A DNA stretch of 64,000 nucleotides from Squalus acanthias (Eukaryota): positions 310,001 through 374,000 of the forward strand of contig JASTWF010000333.1 of NCBI GenBank assembly GCA_030390025.1. Reading direction: 5' to 3'. The notes under the pieces were generated by a model. That model was not told the DNA's origin. It was given only the letters and a program-made list of their open reading frames with translations, and ran no database searches. Positions within the stretch are counted from its first letter, which is position 1. Each line of letters begins with the position of its first letter. Below, piece by piece: positions 9,580 to 49,084 of this stretch. The translations under genes and the position numbers were made by a program.

Positions 9580-11618
9580 CTACTTTTTGCCCTTCGAGGG
9601 TGATCTCCTTCCCTTGCGCACTTCCCCCCTTCTAACCCTACTGCTCCTCCGTAATGGGACCTCAGTGGCTGCAGCAAGGCTGGTGGAAGGCTGCTGCTCG
9701 TCAGACCCTGACACTGCAGATGCCCCTGAAGGACGGCCTCGACCACTTCTGGGCCTGGAGGGCCCGGCTGCAGACTCCACCAACTCTGCATGGGCGGCAG
9801 CAGTCTGTCCTACAGGCGGTGGCAAGTGCAGTGGAGAAGTGACAGTGTTGGCAGCAGGAATGCTGTCATCGAGCGAGAGGACAGCAACTCCCTGCTCGCC
9901 CGACACACTGGCACTCCCACGGGGCAGCACTTCAGCATCCGGAGCAATCTGCCGGAGAACAGATTGCTGGCCTGCTGCGGCGCGGTGACAGCCCCGGGGA
10001 CATGTGCATGAACCATCGAGGTTGGCAGCAGTCTGTGCTCGCGTGGCCTCCATCTGAGTCTGTATGAGAGCAGTCAGAGGTGAGATCACGGCAGCCAGTG
10101 ACTGAATTGCAGCACTAAGCGTTAGTGTGGCATCCGCCTGTGCTACAGCGAAGTGCTCCACACTCCTTGCCAGTGACTCAATGCATTCGGGCACCCTTCC
10201 CACTGCACCCATGAGCTCAGTGTGCATGCCCACCGCCTGGGTGTTCATTTCTGCAATCAGCCGCTCCTCCTCTGCGTCCATTGCAGTAGGAGTGTCTGGC
10301 ATACTCTCCCTCTGGGGAGAAGGCCCCCGTTCTTCCCTACCCCCCCCATGGCGTTGCTGCAGCCCGCTGGGTCCTGGAGCTTCACCATCATCAGCCCCTT
10401 CCCCCCTGCTCCCTTCCGGGGAAGGCGTGTTCCCAGTGTGGGCATGGGCTTCCTCGGGAGAGGGTGGCACTGATGCTCTGGCTTCCTCTTCCTCCTCAGC
10501 TGCAGCATCACTCCCAGTGGCAGCTTCAGGGCCCGTCTCCTCAGCTGGTGAATCACCATCTGAAAGCAGGGAGGTACAAGAGTGGCTTTAGCGTGAGGAC
10601 AGGGTGGCAGTAAGGGAGGAATAAGTGCAGCGAGTTAGCAAGTTGGATTGAAAGTGTCAAAGGCTGGTGTTGTGAGGGACAAGTGGAAGGACAGAGGACA
10701 AAAAGGTGATGACCTTACCATTGCTGTCCAGAACGGGGTCGGCGTCTCCAGTGGCGACGGGACCGATCACCCGGCTTGCCACAATCCTGTGGACGCGCTC
10801 CTCCAGATCGCTGAGGGGTTGCAGCTGAAGCCGCCCTCCACCTGTCCGTTGCTGCTGTCTCCTATTATGAGCCAGCTTAGCCTGCAAGAAAAAGGACAGC
10901 ATCTGAGTAAATATACAGCCATGGTCTTGCCTGATGTGCCTCCCATAGGTGAATAGCCCTTACAATATGCAGCCATGGTCTTGCCTGATGTGCCTCCCAT
11001 AGGTGAATAGCCCTTACAATATGCAGCCATGGTCTTGCCTGATGTGCCTCCCATAGCTGAATAGCCCTTACAATATGCAGCCATGGTCTTGCCTGATGTG
11101 CCTCCCATAGGTGAATAGCCCTTACTGTATACAGCCATGGTCTTGCCTGATGTGCCTCCCATAGGTGAATAGCCCTTACAATATGCAGCCATGGTCTTGC
11201 CTGATGTGCCTCCCATAGGTGAATAGCCCTTACTGTATGCAAAGTGTGGAATGTGTGTGTGTGTTTCATGAAAGGGCCATAGGTGTTGGATGAGTGTTGT
11301 GCATTGGGGTTTTAAGACCCTCTGGCCATATAGTGAGGTTGAGATGGAGGGATGGAGAGGTATTGAGAAAAAGCCACTCACCCTGACGACCCGAGTGAGG
11401 TCGTTGAACTTTTTGCGGCATTGAGTATGGGTCCTGGGCACCATGCTCCTGGAGGAGACGCTCTGAGCCACCTCCCTCCACACTCTTCTGAACTCGCGTG
11501 GCAAAGACCTCCTGCCACTCTCAGGGAAGAGCATACATCGTCTGCGCTCCACTGCGCCAACCAGAGCATCCAAGGCCCGCTCGGTGAAGCGATGAGCGCG
11601 TTCTCTCACCCTCTCCAT
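9580..11618 (-). CDS. Harbinger B Myb/SANT-like protein, exons 11618-11382, 10881-10719, 10559-9580 (459 aa)
   Basis: Canonical GT-AG sites splice in frame (phases 0 and 1); RFTERALDALV...WREVA...QCRKKFNDL; exon 2 AKLAHNRRQQQRTGGG. Confidence 0.88.
10911..11240. repeat. 54-bp minisatellite, 6 copies, in intron 1 of the Myb/SANT gene
   Basis: AGCCATGGTCTTGCCTGATG... recurs at 10917, 10971, 11025, 11079, 11133, 11187. Confidence 0.97.
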
Positions 11619-19589: not shown

Positions 19590-21696
19590 ATTAAGCATTG
19601 GAAGTGCTTCTAAGTAAAACTGGGCACAGGAGAGGGTCATTTGGAATCCCACAACAATGCCCAACAAGGAGAACAGCACAGCACCAATAGCAGAAGGTGG
19701 CCACAGCAGCCAGCGCTAATTGCACAACCCCACACAAGCCAACAAAGTGTCGCAAAAAGTTTAACAACCTTACAAGGTCTGCCAAGGTAAGAGGAGCCAG
19801 GCTCACCTTCTAAGAATACAATGAATTAAGGATGTTTGCAACTTACAGTCACCTCCCCTTCATTGTGTTAGAGTGCTTCAGTTGCTCATCATCAATCCCC
19901 AAGCAAGACTGTTTACACCCCCAACATCCACCTGCAAGTGTTCCTTCATTCACATCCTCACATGGTATGTAATTGCTTGGTTGATGCACATGTCATCACT
20001 CCCATTGTGTTCTGTCTGCTGACGTCTGGGTTTGACGGCATTTCACGCCAACTAGAAGTCCTTAATACTTTTTACATTCTTTTTAAAAATAGAAGACACT
20101 CCAGAACACCAGAGAGAGAGAGAGAGGGAGAGTGACAACAGGTAGTGAACCTGCCAACCTGCACCTCATCACCTCCTACGAGATGGAAACTTTGATGTGG
20201 GTGGAAGAAACAGTAGAAAATCGGACGGGCAAAAAAGTGGTCTGGTTCTGGATCCCGTTCACAATTCCCACTCCTACCCATCGGGTGTGCCAAGCAAAAA
20301 ATCTGCCTTTGGCACAAGTAAAGGGGTTGTCAATGAAATAACACCTTAGTTTAACCACTATGGCTTAATCCAAAATGTAAGCAGTCAGTAGTAGAATAGC
20401 CAATTGTTATTTTTTGGTAACATTGTTTTTCTTCCTTTCTTTTCTAATCAGTGATAACTCATCTGACTCTGGCACGTTACATTGTTTGTGGTGTCTGACT
20501 CCAAAGTAATGTTTAGGGAATCCTATCTTATGCAGGCTGGCCAAATTGTCAAGTTTCTTCATTATTTATTTGAAACTTGCATTCCTTGGATCAATGAAAC
20601 AAAAGCTAACAAGCTCATTACAGCAACAACAACATACATTTCCACAACACTCCTCACGTAGAGAGAGAGATATCTCAGCGTGCTTTACATGGTGATTGAC
20701 AATTAGTGGACTCTCAGCAGCAGGAACAAAAAGGTGGGGGTTAGGAGGGGACAAAGAGAAAGATCTTCAAAGGCAAAGTAAGGACAGAAGTGACACGGTA
20801 GAGTTGCTAAGGAAGTGCTCTGTGGTTGAGCAATTAGTTCACATCCGAGAGCTATATTCATTTTGTTTCTCCTTCACCTTTCTTGCCATGTCATAAGTTT
20901 CTGCTTATGTTGCTGTCTGAATCCTGTACTATCCACACAGGATGATAATTCTCCAAGATATATTTACTTTTTTTTTTCATTCTCAGAATGTGGGTGTTGC
21001 TGGCAAGGCCTGCATCAATGTCCTGACGCTGAGATGACTGGCCTGCAATAACCGCAACCATCTCCTTTTGAACCAGCTCTGATCCCAGCCACTGGAAAGC
21101 TTCCCCCCTCCCCAAATCTCCATCGACTTCAATTTTACTAGGGCTCCTTTGTGCCACACTCAGTCGAATGTTGCCTTAACGTCAAGGGTAGTCACTCTCA
21201 CCTCACCTCTGGAATTCAAGTCTTGTGTCCATGTTTGGATCAAACCCGACAACTACAGGCGGTCCTGGAGAAACTGGTCAAGGCGCCCGAGAAAGATTTG
21301 GGGAAGATGGCTCACATCATGGAAGCGATGAAGAGCATTATGGACATGAGGCAGGTGGCTGCTGAGAACAGCTCGTCGGCCCTTCACGTTCTCACCTACC
21401 AGATGCGACAAAACAGCAAGAAAAGGAGGCTGCTGGAGGACTCCGAGATGGTTCGGAAGTCACCCAAGATCAGGAAGAGCCTGGATTGTGGAGGGAAAGC
21501 CCAGGGCAGAACACCTGCAGACAGCACCACAGGTTACAAGAGACACAGTGCAGAGTTGTCTAGCACAAGAAAAAGACGTCTTTGTGACTCTTCATTGGTT
21601 CAAAATCGAGGAGAACATGAGGCTGACGATCCTCCCTCCGATAAGAGAAGGATGGTAAGATCAGAGTCTTGTGATTTTAGTTCCTTTGAAAAGTGA
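19590..21696 (+). pseudogene. Decayed Harbinger Myb/SANT gene (exon remnants near 19590-19786, 20090-20280, 21270-21696)
   Basis: KCRKKFNNLTRSAK followed by GTAAG donor; downstream exon assignments are tentative. Confidence 0.55.
20985..21270 (-). mobile_element. Fragment of the LINE family seen at 43.2-55.8 kb
   Basis: Shares GACTTCAATTTTACTAGGGCTCCTT...CTCACCTCACCTCTGGAATT with 53860-53950. Confidence 0.8.
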
Positions 21697-41400: not shown

Positions 41401-44056
41401 CAGCTCAAGTTGGTACAAGAATGCTAATTAAGCCTAGCTATACCAGAATGTATGCCTTGTGTGTCTTATGAAGATATCCCAGAATGTGATTAATCCTTCA
41501 CCTTGAGCATTTCCTACACTTACAATGAAAGCTGTGTTTGAAGATGTCTCTTGGAGCCAACACATTTTACCCTTTCTGTCATTGTAGGCCTGGAAGAGCA
41601 GCCTGCCAGAACTGCCAGTGGCAGAGAACAAGACAACACTTAACAGAACCCTGCATCCCCTCTCATCAATGTTTGCAAGCACTGGCACAGCTTCACACAT
41701 CCCAGAGGATGCAGTTAGCGAGCTTGCAGAGGTAGCACCGGGTAAAGCACAGTGCACAAGTGAGGTGGAACAAGTGGGAGTACCTGAGGAGGAGCGTGAA
41801 CCTGTTGCCTAGATGATTACATGGTTGCTGTTAATGACCCCCTGTACTTTGGAAAGTGCGGTGAAATTGGCAGACATGTAATGCGCCTCTTCCTGTTCAG
41901 TGGGAAAGAAGATGAAAGTGCTGGACCTAAGAACATAGGATCATTAAGAGCAGGAGTAGGCCATTCAGCCCCTCAAGCTTGCTCCGCCATTCAATTCGAT
42001 CATGGCTGATCTGCACCTCAACTGATGATCAATTTAACGGGTGGGAGTACATTAACCACTGCTCCAAATAACGCCTATGTTAGCCTCAAAGGAGGCCCAG
42101 GCAGAAAAGTTGAGAGTGATGATTACCTTGACTGCTGCCAGCAGTGCTGTTCCTATGGTGCGGGTTGCTGGCAGTGTCTTTGCAGCAGAATGCACAGCTG
42201 CGTCACTGCTTCCCTGCTGACCTGAGGAGGCAGTTGTCTCTGGAAATTGCTAGGTAGGGCCTACAGATACAATTGGTGGCGTAATGGTAAGTGCAGGCAA
42301 TTAATTTCTGGTAGCTGATGAGCTCCCTGATAGGCCTTCTTGCATCATGTACTACTTCAACCATACTTTAAAAACAACCACATTATTAATTTTACCATCA
42401 CCTGGTACATATCTCTGTGGCTTACAGTTAGATACCTTGTCCCTTCTGATATTTTTAGTGATAGAATATTAAAAATGAAGCCGTCATTTGCACCAACTGT
42501 AAACTCTACACAGATTCAAGCACAGGGTGAAGGAGGACGGGAGATGAAAATGCGGAAAAGAAATGCATAAAAATATTGCGAGTAGTGTTAGTATTCTATG
42601 TGTGTTAGATATTCTGCAGGGTTAGCTGATGACTTTTTATGAGCATGTCCTTCATGTAAATCAGATTATAACCTTATAGATTTTTTGAGTCATTTCAACT
42701 ACACTAAGGTGAGTGTAATAATCACCACTACTTACTTAGCGCAGCCTTAACATTCAGTCTTTGGATTTGAAATATTTTGCTGTAATTGAATCTGAACTTG
42801 CTTCTCCTCCATTACCTCTTTGCATTATTCAGCAATACAAACATGATTTAGCTATGGAAGGATTTCATTTTAACTTGATTGTATTACTAATAGGCTTTCT
42901 CTGCTTCCACAGGCACCAGTGTAGCGGGAGATGTGTCGTCATTTTGCCTGCCAGCTATATGGCATGAAAAAGTTTAACGATAGTTAGTCTTGCCTCACTT
43001 TGATAAGGCCTCTTTAGTTATGTTTTCTGTCCTTATTATAGATGTTAAAAATGAAAATACACAGGGGACTGGAAACACTTCTGGAAATTTACAGAATTTA
43101 AGTCCATGCAGAATTATTTTCCAGAATCTGTCATAAAATAACAAGCTTTTCCAGCTAATTCATTATTCCTTACATCGGAGCTATTGCTTATTACAAAGTA
43201 TTACAATGTATTTTTTAAATTAGTTTATGGGATGTGGGCGTCGCTGGCAAGGCCAGCATCTATTGCCCATCCCTAGTTGCCCTTGAGAAGGTGGTGGTGA
43301 GCTGCCTTCTTGAACCGCTGCAGTCCGTGTGGTGAAGGTACTCCCACAGTGCTGTTACGGAGGGAGTTCCAGGGTTTTGACCCAGCGATGATGAAGGAAC
43401 GGCGATATACTTCCAAGTCAGGGAGGTGTGGGACGTGGGGGGAAACTTGGAGGTGATGGTGTTCCCATGCGCCTGCTGCCCTTGTCCTTCTAGGTGGTAG
43501 AGGTCGTGGGTTTGGGAGGTGCTGTCGAAGGAGCCTTGGCGAGTTGCTGCAGCGCGTCTTGTAGATGGTACACACTGCAGCCATGGTGCGCCAGTGGTGG
43601 AGGGAGTGAATGTTTAAGGTGGTGGAGGGGGTGCCAATGAAGCGGGCTACTTTGTCCTGGATGGTGTCGAGCTTCTAGAGTGTTGTTGGAGCTGCACTCA
43701 TCCAGGCAAGTGGAGAGTATTCCATCACAGTCCTGACTTGTGCCTTGTAGATGGTGGAAAGGCTTTGGGGAGTCAGGAGGTGAGACACTCGCCACAGAAT
43801 ACCCAGCCTCTGACCTGCTCATGTAGCCACAGTATTTATGTGGCTGGTCCAGTTAAGTTTCTGGTCAATGGTGACCCCCAGGATGTTGATCGTGAGGGAT
43901 TCGGCGATGGTAATGCCGTTGAATGTCAAGAGGCGGTGGTTAGACTCTCTCTTGTTAGAGATAGTCATTGCCTGGCACTTGTGTGGCGCGAATGTTACTT
44001 GCCACTTATCAGCCTGAATGTCGTACAGGTCTAGTTGCCTGCGGGCATGGACTGCT

Positions 44057-45779
44057 TGTAGAATTCGCAATATATCGCGATTTGATTAATAAGGAGAAAA
44101 CACAAAGTTTCGTTCAAACAGCTTTTATTTCAGCAGAATGCTGGCAGGTTTAAATTGGACACAAGCAGCCTGTAAAATGGCCGCCGCACCTCGTGACAGA
44201 ACATTCTAGACTTTTCAACAGGCAGACAAGATGGCGTTCCATTAAACATTTGTGCAAGATCGATAACGATTCAGCACAGTGAAGATAATACACGAGACAT
44301 TATGGGTTTGCAGTATAAACATAGATACTGGAATCGGTCTCCCAGGTACAAAGGAAAGCCATTGTACCGAGTAATCAAGGGCCCATCCAAAAGACATTAA
44401 TATGTAAAATCCCAACGACTCTACGATGAGAGAGCTGTTAGCAGGTAGTTATACAGGACACTTGGAAGCCCCAAACCCCTCCAGGGAGAACACCGACCGA
44501 TTTAACAATGGGAGAAATATTAACAGGTACTCAGACATTTATGAGTAGCCCCGAAACCCATTAAGAACGGAGATCACCCATACAAGACATTTGGGCGCCA
44601 AACCCTAAACAAAAGAATGGACATTATAGTTGGGCGGGAAACGGAAGATTTTTGCACTATAATTGCAGGCTCCAAACCGTCCATTCTCTCTCTTGCTCTT
44701 GCATTCGCTCGCTTGCTCCTGTGTTTTTATCCGGTCGATTCGTAACCTCGTGGCTGCTCCTGTGTACTCGTAGTTGGGCTTCGGCTTGCCTGTTGCCTCT
44801 TCTGAAAAGACTGTTGAACTTTCTGATCCGTTCGGATCTACCTCGTGTCGCGTAACGAAGACCTATGTTGGTAACTGGCAGCGGAACCAAAGGCCCGAGA
44901 TGAGATGAGATGAGATGAGATGAGATGAGAAGAGAGGAAGACCATATCCATCGCCACGGTCAGTAAATCCCGACCGCGCCTGTAGGTCGATCAGCCAAGT
45001 TTTCCTCGCCAGGAAGATTTCTATTTTGAACTTTTAACAAAACATATTGCATCGACGATAACGGGACTGTGTCCAAGGAGATTGGAACGTGAAAACACAT
45101 CGTATCGATGATATTGACAACTGTGCTCCAAGAGTACCTGTTAAACCAACCAACACAGGTCTTCATCACAGCAGACGGTCCAGCCTGCTAGCCGGAGCAG
45201 CAGAAGCAAGTAAACAAGTGGGACCAGGAGATCTCCTGACCGACACGTGGGTGCTGCGGTGAAAAACATCCGATCAGCTATTCGGAATTTCTCCGAGTTA
45301 TCACGAGTGGTGAGCATGAGTCTCGAGATCCTACGAAGCTAGTTTAGGATAGATATTGATAGGGGAGGGTTTAAGGATTAAGGATATTTGTAATGTGTGC
45401 CCCTATTTACTTTGTGCCGTTCGTTCCTCGTTTCCCTAAGATCGACTATATAACTGTTTGTAAGATTGTACTGTCATTAATCTGTGCTTATGACATGTAT
45501 TTCATAATCTTAAGTATCATGCAATAAAGATTTTCCATTTCGTACCATTCAAACCAAGTCTACATGAGTTTTATCTCCATTACTGCTCTCGCATCTAAGT
45601 CCAGTGTCTAGAACCGTAAGGGAGAGTGATTCGAACCACTCACAGGTGTGTCTAGTGTTCCCAGACTGGCTGGAGACCAGAACAGGCAACCAGGCCTAGA
45701 CCCGCACTGACATACAGGCTGCACAGAGCCGCGTGAATCTCACAGGCTGCGAGACACGCAGGGTCAGGAATCCCTTACA
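44057..45779 (+). repeat. 5' LTR
   Basis: Starts TGTAGAATTC, ends CCCTTACA. Candidate TATATAA at 45447-45453, AATAAA at 45523-45528, internal (GAGAT)n tract. Confidence 0.95.
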
Positions 45780-45783
45780 GAAA

Positions 45784-47595
45784 ATGGCGACCGCGGCAGG
45801 ACACTGGCAGCGAGAGGGTAGTGTGTTAGATTTTGGAATGACTGTACGAAATGTTATGCAGGAAAAGATAGCGGATTATGTGTTTGGAAAGGTTAATCTA
45901 ACTAAGAAGTGGATAAGTGAATTGTTAGCGGATAAGAGCCCACTAGAGGCAGCTGAAAGGTGGACAGATAGTAAAGAACATAGAAAGACACTTGAGAAAG
46001 CAGTCTGGCTTATGTGCTACAAAAGGCAGGTTCAGATTTCAAACCAGACCATTACAGCGCTAGTAGCTCGAATCAGTCATTTAGAGGGAGAAATGGAGGA
46101 GAAGGTTTCTGGAGGAGAGGTGCTCATTAAGAATTTAAATGAGTTACACCAAGAAAGCCAGGAAGTCTCCAGTCACCTTAAAACAAGGATAGATTATCTC
46201 GAGTGCCAGGTCACTGAGGCAAAATTGAATGAGAGCAGGTTAAAGGAAAGATGTAACCGCCAAGCTGCCCAGATAAGAACTCAAGAAGAGAGCTTAATGG
46301 GGGTTAGGTCGGCATATAAGTTGGCCCTTGAGGATAAGTTTCAGGGAGCCGACCATAGCGCCTGCCAAAGGGAGATAGAGAACCTCAAAAAGGCCGTGAA
46401 CAATGCGAACGGCATGGTGTGCCTTATCAATCCGTCGGCGCACCAGCCGCTAGTAAATGAGAGATTTAGAAAATCCCCACCAAGTAAAGCAGAAGAAGTA
46501 GTAGCCACTGCGCCCTCCGCGCCACCCAGCTATTCAGAAACCTGGGTTAGGGAGGAAGCAATGGAAGAAACAAAAGAGCCCATTGAAAAGGAAGTAGAAA
46601 AGGGATCGCTGTATCCAGTAACGGGTATTAAAAGGGGCCCAAGCAGAAACGGTGGGGAAGAACCGGGGGATCTCCTCGGACAGCTGGTGTTGCCTCACAG
46701 TTCACATCAGCTGAGAGCTATGATAAATCACGTACGGAAGCTGACCGAGATAGACGACCCTTCCGTACATTTCAGAGAAGTTGAGCAAGCCGCAGCCATT
46801 AACGGCTGCGATGATGGGGAGACAGCAAAAATGCTGCTGTTCTCATTAGACAGCTCGGTCCTTCAGTGTCTCTCAGGCGAGAGCAAGAGGGGAAACAAGA
46901 GTTATGAGGAATTAAAGAATGAGGTCCTAGAAGTGTTGGGGGCGAACGACGGAGGTCCGTTTGCTAGAGTGGGACAGACAGTGCAGATGGAGGGAGAACC
47001 CCCGAAGGTTTTTGCCGACAGGCTGTGGCCAGTATATGAGCGCAGCTGTCTAGGTGCGCCCGAGCGCGAAGATGTGGAAGGCGCCGCTTTAACTCATTGG
47101 CTTAGGTGCATAATAGCCAACAGTTTACCAGCCGTTAGAGAGCAGGCAAAAGCATGGTTTGATCCCAATGACCTCAACCTTACGGAAGAGTCGGTCTTGA
47201 ATCGACTCACGTTAGGTTATCGCAATATAAGGGGTATGACGACACGTCCCCTTAAGGGAAGAGTACATGAGGTACGACCCGCAGCCCCGTATCAAAGAGA
47301 GTGGCATCAGGAGGGTAATCGCGCCCCACAGGCAAGTAATGCTTGTTACGGGTGTGGGAAGACAGGGCACTGGCGCAAGCATTGCAGGAACCCTTGGAAG
47401 GATTCCAAGGATAAAAATCCCGCGGTCCGAGCCCAGGCGCCTGTCCCGGCTAAGGAAGCCAAGGCACCCACCCCTCCCGACGACCTCGAAGCAGTGTTAG
47501 GAGCCATGCGCAAGCTGGTCTTGAATGCGCGTGGACAGGTGGCGGTCGCAACCGGCCCCGTAGGTGCCGCAGGACCGTCTAATAGTACCCAATGA
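45784..47595 (+). CDS. gag: Gag polyprotein (about 603 aa)
   Basis: Open frame with N-terminal coiled coil, overlapping PSAP/PPSY late-domain motifs (46513-46533), MHR-like QMEGEPPKVFADRL, CCHC knuckle CYGCGKTGHWRKHC. Start taken at the first ATG (strong context AAAATGG). Confidence 0.9.
   Translation: MATAAGHWQREGSVLDFGMTVRNVMQEKIADYVFGKVNLTKKWISELLADKSPLEAAERWTDSKEHRKTLEKAVWLMCYKRQVQISNQTITALVARISHLEGEMEEKVSGGEVLIKNLNELHQESQEVSSHLKTRIDYLECQVTEAKLNESRLKERCNRQAAQIRTQEESLMGVRSAYKLALEDKFQGADHSACQREIENLKKAVNNANGMVCLINPSAHQPLVNERFRKSPPSKAEEVVATAPSAPPSYSETWVREEAMEETKEPIEKEVEKGSLYPVTGIKRGPSRNGGEEPGDLLGQLVLPHSSHQLRAMINHVRKLTEIDDPSVHFREVEQAAAINGCDDGETAKMLLFSLDSSVLQCLSGESKRGNKSYEELKNEVLEVLGANDGGPFARVGQTVQMEGEPPKVFADRLWPVYERSCLGAPEREDVEGAALTHWLRCIIANSLPAVREQAKAWFDPNDLNLTEESVLNRLTLGYRNIRGMTTRPLKGRVHEVRPAAPYQREWHQEGNRAPQASNACYGCGKTGHWRKHCRNPWKDSKDKNPAVRAQAPVPAKEAKAPTPPDDLEAVLGAMRKLVLNARGQVAVATGPVGAAGPSNSTQ
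45785..45802 (+). promoter_or_regulatory. Primer binding site, tRNA-Arg(TCG)-type
   Basis: TGGCGACCGCGGCAGGAC is the reverse complement of GTCCTGCCGCGGTCG-CCA, which I recall as the 3' end of a vertebrate tRNA-Arg(TCG); lies 5 nt after the LTR end. Confidence 0.85.
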
Positions 47596-48744
47596 CTAGA
47601 GCCCACGCAGCCTGCCTACCTGTGTCCTTTTAAAAGACACGCACAGGAGGGGGTCTGCGGTGAGGAGGCCAGGTTAAAAGAGCAGGCCTTGCGGGAGGAG
47701 AACGCCCGCTTAATAGGGAAAATAGATGGGCTGGAAGGGCAGCTTAGAGAGCAGGCCCTGCGGGAGGAGAACGCCCGATCAATGGGAAAGTTAGACGTGC
47801 TCAGGCTAGAAGGGCAGCTTAGAGAGATAAAAGCAGCCTACAGGGTAGCCAAAAGCCGGGAGTACGAGGATGTAAACCAGTGCAAACTGTACAAGCCAGG
47901 TGCGCAAGGGAAAACTACAGGGGTAAATCCCGCCAATGGGAAAGCACAGCCCCAGGTAGGACCACAAGGCACACAGGCAGGCATAGCAGCTTGTATCAGG
48001 GGAAGGGACATCCCGGACGATCATGCAGCGTTTTTCTGGAGTTGGGGGTTAGATGAGGAAGAACCCAGGGTACCCTGGTCAGATGAGGATAGTGCAGATG
48101 AGCATAGTGATGATGACGGGTGGTTCCTGAGGAACGGTCTGGAGGGAATGGGGCCTATAGGTAGAGATCCACACAGGGTGGACACACAAGCTGCAGGTCC
48201 CGAGGACAGGAGGGAGGAGCTAGAGGAGGCAGGGCCAGCCGCTATAGGAGCACAGAGAGTACCGATGTGGCTCCCAGAGATGTGGCCGCCCGCTTTGAAC
48301 GTCCAGTCCTCAGGGGAGGCAGAGATCACGAGTGAAGGGCCGCTTGCTGGGCCGAGCAGGGCGGAGCCACGAACTGCCAGCCCCGAGGTTAGGGAGGCGG
48401 AGTCAGCGGAGGCGGAGCCGGCGACTGTGATGGAACCCCAGGTCATCCCGTTGGAGGTCTCGGAACCCGGTCCGTCCGTCACGGAACCCCCGCCCATAGC
48501 AACTCCCCGTAGGTCAAGTAGAGAACCCCAGCCCAGGAGGATGTGGTCATGTCCCCAGACTGCCCCAAGGCGTAGACTTCAGGTTAAGATAACCCGGGTA
48601 CAGACCGGCCACATCGCAGCAGTAACAGGCTGCGGCAGATCAGAGGGAAGGGTCAGCGCAGCAATAGGCTGCGGCAGATCAGAGGGAAGGGTCAGTGCCC
48701 TCCCACCGTCGGGAAGAGCTCGCAGCAGCCTTCTCAGAGTTTAA
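47596..48744 (+). CDS. ORF X, in-frame readthrough extension of gag in the position normally held by pol (382 codons, unknown function)
   Basis: No stop from the codon after the gag TGA to 48744; TGA-CTAG context; no protease, YxDD, RNase H or DDE motifs visible. Confidence 0.65.
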   Translation, partial: LEPTQPAYLCPFKRHAQEGVCGEEARLKEQALREENARLIGKIDGLEGQLREQALREENARSMGKLDVLRLEGQLREIKAAYRVAKSREYEDVNQCKLYKPGAQGKTTGVNPANGKAQPQVGPQGTQAGIAACIRGRDIPDDHAAFFWSWGLDEEEPRVPWSDEDSADEHSDDDGWFLRNGLEGMGPIGRDPHRVDTQAAGPEDRREELEEAGPAAIGAQRVPMWLPEMWPPALNVQSSGEAEITSEGPLAGPSRAEPRTASPEVREAESAEAEPATVMEPQVIPLEVSEPGPSVTEPPPIATPRRSSREPQPRRMWSCPQTAPRRRLQVKITRVQTGHIAAVTGCGRSEGRVSAAIGCGRSEGRVSALPPSGRARSSLLRV

Positions 48745-49084
48745 AGGGGCCGCCCTGAGAACGGGCGGCACTGTAAAGTTATAGTTCTAAGTTTTAAGTT
48801 TATAAGTAACAAGGTTAAGTTTTAAGTTTATAGTAACAAGGTTAAGTTTTAAGTTTATAGTTCAAGGTTAAGGTTGTAGTTTTAATAAGGCTAAGTTTGT
48901 AGTGTTTTTAACAGAAAACGATAAAATGATGGGAGTTTTAAGGTTAGGTTTAGAGGAAGCTTATTCAGCAAACGTTGAAGTTTACGTGAGGCGAGGTCAG
49001 GGGACCCGCTCACCCTTCACAAAAGCCAGAGACTCTTGCGAGGCTGGCTACCTCATTCTATCTGATCACAGGAACCAAGGAAGG

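Follow-up and report, generated by a model that had tools for sequence, protein, structure and literature searches.

The Provirus and Its Open Reading Frames

We analyzed a 64,000-nucleotide (nt) stretch of the genome of Squalus acanthias (GenBank assembly GCA_030390025.1, contig JASTWF010000333.1, positions 310,001 to 374,000 of the forward strand), called the window below. It contains a provirus with two 1,723-bp long terminal repeats (LTRs), flanked on both sides by the 4-bp target-site duplication (TSD) TGCT. Three frames between the LTRs are open: gag, env and, between them, an open reading frame (ORF) here called X, whose origin is the main subject of this report (Table 1). An earlier note on this DNA, made from its letters alone, had described a recent insertion with a clean TSD and three open ORFs, and this description holds. 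The LTRs differ at 150 sites, of which 147 are A>G changes in a single hyperedited tract and 3 are others; because only these 3 lie outside the tract, the insertion is young.

Pfam detected no protease (PR), reverse transcriptase (RT), RNase H or integrase (IN) family in the gag, X or env products (E<=1). A six-frame scan of 45780-51880 with enzyme motif patterns gave no PR or RT match. It returned one integrase-HHCC-like match, on the minus strand and interrupted by a stop, and three GPF tripeptides, one within Gag and two on the minus strand. The provirus is a gag+env element without coding capacity for PR, RT, RNase H or IN, and the earlier claim that none of these enzymes is visible between the LTRs was borne out by both searches.

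Table 1. Coordinates of the provirus and its features in the window (aa, amino acids).
Feature	Position	Strand	Basis or remark
Left TSD, TGCT	44053..44056	.	
5' LTR, 1,723 bp, TG...CA	44057..45779	+	
gag, 603 aa	45784..47595	+	open frame
Putative primer-binding site, TGG start	45785..45802	+	overlaps gag ATG
TGA-CTAG readthrough-type context at gag stop	47593..47599	+	
X part 1, 11 codons in common with a pol-like form that departs from the window at this point	47596..47627	+	X18, X20 contigs
Predicted RNA hairpin 3' of the stop	47606..47659	+	5' arm in X part 1, 3' arm in filler
X part 2, Gag-coil-derived filler, 245 nt	47628..47872	+	~69-nt internal duplication
8-nt overlap, candidate template-switch microhomology	47873..47880	+	integrase-end-like form joins from left, another filler-bearing form exits right
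X part 3, second half of integrase-end motif and ~285-aa tail	47873..48744	+	
env	48929..51436	+	likely start Met 49085, signal-peptide-like stretch
Short polypurine run 5' of 3' LTR	51872..51879	+	
3' LTR, 1,723 bp, TG...CA	51881..53603	+	
Right TSD, TGCT	53604..53607	.	

The Frame of ORF X and Its Gag-Derived Middle

Around the gag stop codon TGA (47593-47595) the sequence reads CAA-TGA-CTAG, and the gag frame then stays open from 47596 to 48741, for 382 codons, until a TAA at 48742-48744; the earlier note had reported the same arrangement, confirmed here at 47593-48744. The other five frames across X contain 5-24 stops each, and the probability of a stop-free run as long as X by chance is about 8e-7 at the local base composition. 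The structure model of X contains one helix, formed by residues 20-93, and the remainder is predicted to be disordered, including an acidic tail of ~285 residues rich in Pro, Gly and Ala. Three weak tests for relatives gave nothing: no protein of near length resembled X, no relative of residues 90-382 was found among proteins of 670-2000 aa, and a feature-based protein atlas held no usable match.

The middle of X is related to Gag. Profiles of related Gags matched X residues 46-94 at 20-28 bits, as compared with maxima of 4.5-7.8 for shuffled sequences, and the score of this filler was reached by none of 600 controls, heptad-preserving shuffles included, and by none of 200 in each test of the filler or of the whole X. 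The filler aligns to Gag residues 145-190, and the match stops at the 47873-47880 junction. No Gag homology was found in X residues 96-382 or 115-200, the scores of which were no better than those of shuffles. A likeness seen by eye around residues 110-115 and 185-188 had suggested diverged Gag throughout the front half of X, a view that these scores led us to reject. The filler is identical to the Gag of the provirus itself at only 11 of 46 positions (24%), the lowest value of 11 rows, and to the relative P0029 at 20 of 45 (44%), in a comparison whose profile was built from other Gags and so favors them over the provirus's own. A recent copy of the provirus's own gag was also rejected as the source: besides the 11 of 46 residues, nucleotide identity is 40%, the pairwise score is 41 as compared with up to 75, and the local DNA score is at the shuffle level. 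To judge from these alignments, the filler is probably either an old duplicate or derived from a different Gag lineage.

ORF X in Contigs from Other Sequencing Runs

Out of 24 listed runs, four (X3, X6, X18 and X20, from organisms A, B, C and E) supplied contigs that were aligned to 46500-49600, and 24 of 263 loose ends (30 letters of each), 40 of 306 variants and 12 of 18 indels were examined. All 30 bins of this interval were covered in all four runs. The gag-X junction was bridged by X6 record 28 from organism B (47557-47763, 0 differences) and by X18 record 3 from organism C (47592-47880, 6 differences). Because contigs of both runs bridge the junction, the gag-X layout is a family trait; a layout unique to this locus, which the earlier note had set against its own reading, is contradicted by these two other organisms. 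This recurrence, together with the intact TSD and the three open frames, leaves next to no credence to the view that the provirus is a one-off decayed copy, in which a deletion at a single locus made X by accident. On a wider scale, 20 runs from 8 studies and 5 organisms contained 53-75% of the 31-mers of 45780-51880, at about 1-2% divergence, which could reflect either close relationship of the hosts or recent spread between them.

The contigs also include forms that depart from the window within X. Behind 47627, the loose ends of one X18 contig and two X20 contigs were open in the X frame and encoded a Trp-Arg-Arg-Pro stretch resembling the first strand of retroviral proteases. At the other side of the filler, before 47872/47873, loose ends were present in all four runs, again open in the X frame (208 letters in X6, 177 letters in X18). 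They carried Lys-Trp-x-His, the first half of an integrase-end motif, the second half of which, N-Q-x-K, is encoded in the window by X residues 94-97. We drew the motif, K-W-x-H-x-N-Q-x-K, by eye from the supplement of PMC7947760, where seven lokiretrovirus Pol ends carry it as K-W-V-H-R/A-N-Q-I/L-K; it is not a published criterion. Inspected by eye, it is present across the join, half in the loose end and half in the window. The form arriving from the left and the form leaving to the right share 47873-47880, as would be expected of template-switch microhomology.

Taken together, these comparisons indicate that X is most likely an in-frame three-part chimera, composed of a pol start, a Gag coil and a probable Pol tail, and not a new gene. 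Its last ~285-290 residues are probably the C-terminal tail of Pol. An entirely new gene without any relation to pol is a highly improbable identity for X: the lack of any Pfam family or homologue for X would fit such a gene, but both ends of X are common to pol-like forms and the middle is Gag-derived. The earlier proposal of a gag+env element devoid of enzymes is supported, and relatives carry different, pol-like sequence on either side of the slot that X occupies. Its view of X as an unknown ORF that had replaced pol has to give way to one of 11 codons of a pol form, a Gag coil and a probable Pol tail. The earlier note had also set an off-frame pol remnant against its own reading; X appears to be an in-frame pol remnant, which comes close to that refuting condition.

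Several points weigh against this derivation from pol. The loose ends were compared over 30 letters each, in 24 of 263 rows, and no single contig spans a pol gene. No contig links the two pol-like ends on one molecule, and an open helper Pol frame through the whole tail was seen in none. In each of the seven published lokiretrovirus Pol ends examined (PMC7947760, supplement), the protein ends no more than about 30 residues from the motif, and a post-integrase tail of 285 aa would therefore be unusual; no long protein carrying the X tail was found in what was a weak test. Moreover, a second filler-bearing form departs from the window at 47880 and returns to it at 47937 (X6, X20), so that there are at least two types of X junction, and the tail from 47937 could therefore have a separate origin.

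The last two points would suit another history, in which the tail from about 47937 and the coil formed an accessory gag-derived ORF once located between pol and env, and the copy in the window is a recombinant of deletion forms that fused this ORF to the pol start and the integrase end. The filler-bearing form with its 47880 exit and 47937 return speaks for it, and so does the position at which lokiretroviral integrases would end after the motif, about 47937 (PMC7947760, supplement). We nevertheless regard it as quite improbable, as X residues 96-382 and 115-200 are without Gag homology, no loose end lies behind about 47936 among the 24 of 263 rows, and the searches for relatives of X yielded none that stands alone.

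The gag Stop Codon and Its Context

The heptamer TGACTAG occurs three times in the 64 kb, once of these within the provirus. The supplement of PMC7947760, scanned over the first 300 of its 318 pages in a way that matches split by line ends escape, yielded 17 TGACTAG matches. Four of them, as judged by eye, stand at the end of gag in frame with the protease, one of the four being annotated as the stop codon of Loki-Ofa gag. A coelacanth match was dropped as a gag-pol signal because the pol annotated there is in a different frame, and the remaining 12 are internal, upstream or at the end of pol. Since at least three lokiretroviral elements in PMC7947760 have gag and pol annotated as a single ORF, the signal is not universal. 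Four published lokiretrovirus sequences have the signal at the same place, where gag would read on in frame into the protease, which argues that the provirus inherited it. The best interpretation of UGA-CUAG is therefore as a gag-pol switch of the helper, retained together with 11 codons. The earlier claim of a kept gag readthrough signal stands as to its presence, and as to its meaning becomes that of an inherited gag-pol junction.

According to the consulted parts of a 2026 readthrough review (PMC13517186), examples of the UGACUA(G) context come from alphaviruses, PSIV and human genes, and UGACUAG gives at least ~1.3% readthrough in human genes. The hairpin predicted 3' of the stop has 15 of 17 pairs at a probability of >=0.89 and a z of -3.2 over 168 nt; with ranks of only 20th and 36th among 162 windows, it is not exceptional within the provirus. 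A Gag-X fusion produced by readthrough is plausible, as a prediction from sequence only. The main text of PMC7947760 gave zero matches for readthrough, stop codon or 'translat', and the review PMC13517186 gave zero matches for 'loki'. The provirus also points to UGA-CUAG as the signal by which some lokiretroviruses would pass from gag to pol, and no published account of this was found in a search that had subscription papers and Repbase outside its range.

Origin and Maintenance of ORF X

We consider it quite probable that X is a chimeric pol remnant in a helper-dependent provirus. The segment from PR through most of IN would have been lost by recombination, with an in-frame patch left in the pol frame. 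This recombination was probably template switching in co-packaged RNAs, with the 8-nt overlap at the 3' join. The unspliced RNA would then yield Gag and, via UGA-CUAG, a few percent of an enzyme-less Gag-X of ~986 aa, and Env would be made from a spliced RNA. Gag and Env would package and spread the RNA, and a pol-bearing relative would supply PR, RT and IN in mixed particles; as the enzyme genes are lost, the element probably borrows enzymes from intact relatives. X itself probably remains open chiefly as a frame that was inherited or as a passenger that is tolerated.

Alternatively, Gag-X could be selected as a decoy Gag-Pol, whose coil and Pol tail aid the entry of the RNA into helper particles in cis. 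This would also fit the chimeric origin. In support of that, the indels listed inside X preserve the frame (-21 nt in X6 and X20, a patch in X20 whose four 1-nt indels cancel out, and a joint of net -75 nt in X3), and the seven others are 1-nt indels confined to the non-coding 48781-48923. Moreover, the filler is inserted in frame and completes the hairpin just 3' of the stop, and the fusion protein of the mouse element IAP 1Δ1 is reported to act in cis (PMC6466679, in part). However, the synonymous/non-synonymous counts are 5/6 for X as compared with 14/6 for gag (env, 4/5, with four of its sites preceding the likely start Met), from variant rows that mix helper-type and X-type copies and with a neutral synonymous share for transitions of about 0.33. 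The frame-keeping indels are thus suggestive of selection, but constraint at the protein level is unsupported by the 5/6 counts. Also against selection are the low rank of the hairpin, the T-rich and repetitive, hence indel-prone, nature of the intergenic tract, the low-depth joints of X3 with deletions of 614 and 916 nt running across X, and the youth of the family, in which an open frame requires little selection. On balance, we find a selected Gag-X rather doubtful.

A still fuller picture can be drawn, of a satellite retrovirus in which the helper's readthrough switch makes a decoy Gag-Pol, and a second, foreign Gag coil and a Pol tail, brought into particles at Gag-Pol stoichiometry, recruit helper enzymes or favor the RNA of the satellite. 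Such a satellite would be part of a cartilaginous-fish lineage of lokiretrovirus-like elements with alphavirus-type UGA-CUAG readthrough, and would have spread among several species almost unchanged. Taken as a whole, this picture is unlikely.

Comparison with Known Retroelements

Non-autonomous endogenous retroviruses (ERVs) with in-frame pol deletions are already known. In mouse IAP 1Δ1, an in-frame deletion created a gag-pol fusion ORF, and the element is mobilized in trans and has been more prolific than its helper (PMC6466679, in part). The provirus resembles it as a non-autonomous ERV with a fusion frame of gag-pol type made by in-frame deletion. In contrast to IAP 1Δ1, with its partial gag and no env, the provirus has a whole gag and an open env, its fusion would depend on readthrough alone, and the gap is occupied by the coil of a foreign Gag. 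No account of this family, or of a satellite that has gag and env and a pol frame patched in this way, was found in a literature search that covered titles and abstract openings, with few subscription papers and no Repbase. The provirus would show helper dependence in which gag and env are kept and the enzymes alone are lost, with recombination joins that are still readable. If Gag-X proved useful to the element, it would be the second case, after IAP 1Δ1, of a defective fusion driving the spread of its own parasite.

The lokiretroviruses of Wang and Han (PMC7947760), as far as its text and supplement were consulted, resemble the provirus in an apparently coiled-coil-headed Gag, TGACTAG at the gag end of some members, a similar integrase-end motif and an apparently F-protein-like Env with an RXKR site and a P-G-P-x-x-G-x-V-L-like F start. 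Unlike them, the provirus has a CCHC knuckle in Gag (absent from the two lokiretroviral Gag ends examined), an extra N-terminal part of ~240 aa with a probable Ig-like domain in Env and what is probably a long post-integrase tail. None of the four cartilaginous-fish genomes in a table of that paper is marked positive for lokiretroviruses. The traits of the provirus fit this group, membership of which rests on the RT, together with a tether and a second RNase H; the pol that would encode them is lost here.

Two zebrafish elements, BHIKHARI Bik-1 and Bik-2, are recently active and related to lokiretroviruses, and Bik-2 is non-autonomous (PMC12067270, in part). The coiled-coil Gag, apparent in the provirus as well, the recent activity and, for Bik-2, non-autonomy are likenesses to the provirus. 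The differences are that Bik-2 is a single gag ORF with no env and no pol remnant, and that Bik-1 Gag has a Gly-rich patch in place of the knuckle. Gamma- and epsilonretroviruses, as described in the consulted parts of PMC13517186, make Pol by suppressing a stop codon that follows the knuckle, with an RNA structure 3' of it, an arrangement that the provirus may share by prediction; the retroviral contexts named there, UAGGGA, UAGGGC or UGAAGA/UGACGA/UGAAGU, are unlike its UGA-CUAG.

Gag and Env

Gag comprises a putative N-terminal coiled coil, a capsid-like region and a single CCHC knuckle at 47344-47385. The capsid-like region matched the murine leukemia virus capsid 6hww weakly (E 0.25), and the coiled-coil head had weak matches only, to coil families. 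Relatives numbered 30 at E<=0.001, and among nine that were looked up, five were from Scyliorhinus, Heterodontus and Xenopus. The start MATAAG is common to the relatives P0005 and P0034, with an overall identity of 38%. The gag ATG overlaps the primer-binding site (45784-45802), and the start encoded there is kept in both relatives. A Gag search of viral and metagenome contigs found no locus, and neither these contigs nor the proteins of 670-2000 aa yielded an autonomous partner of the provirus.

The putative F-type fusion part of Env begins at ~49796 and is followed by an RQRR site at 50063 and a transmembrane segment at ~51284-51343. Language-model features of the C-terminal part were 0.93-0.95 to Gypsy/Baculo_F/Fusion_gly clusters, so that by such features it resembles F-type fusion proteins; no Pfam or PDB match attested this identity, and the structure model was of low confidence (pLDDT 33.8). 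Three relatives were present in the protein collection, from skate (75%) and sawshark (53-59%). Upstream of the F-type part, a probable Ig-like domain lies at ~49346-49585: Pfam Ig_3 matched at E 0.09, most of 41 weak PDB matches were Ig domains (best E 0.095), and the segment has Cys-Trp-Tyr-x-Cys spacing. In the lokiretroviral Env starts examined in PMC7947760, the signal peptide is followed directly by the P-G-P motif. Between X and env, the window has a T-rich repeated tract (48770-48870) with several length variants in other runs, and a candidate env splice acceptor was seen by eye at about 48900-48914.

LTRs and Flanking Sequences

The 5' LTR has TATAA at 45449 and AATAAA at 45523, positions that suggest a long U3 and a corresponding U3/R/U5 split. 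The primer for the putative primer-binding site is presumably tRNA-Arg(UCG); no tRNA genes were found within the 64-kb window.

At the 147 A>G sites, the 5' LTR has A and the 3' LTR has G. The tract spans LTR positions 60-909 (window ~51940-52789), and is confined to the 3' LTR. Adenosines preceded by G were spared (14 of 71 changed vs 132 of 181; Fisher p 1e-14), and by its base preference the tract is an ADAR-type pattern. Reverse transcription normally copies U3 into both LTRs. A tract confined to one LTR therefore points either to plus-strand transfer from one co-packaged RNA to another or to gene conversion at a later time. No long inverted repeat that would account for the tract was found. 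A>G hyperediting in avian retroviruses is cited in the part of PMC8586724 consulted.

The provirus is inserted in a decayed reverse-transcriptase frame of a long interspersed nuclear element on the minus strand (43700-44056 and 53604-53960), which we assume to be CR1/L2-like. The right flank matches 21010-21243 at 79%. A tandem array of a 54-nt unit at 10856-11287 is unrelated to the provirus.

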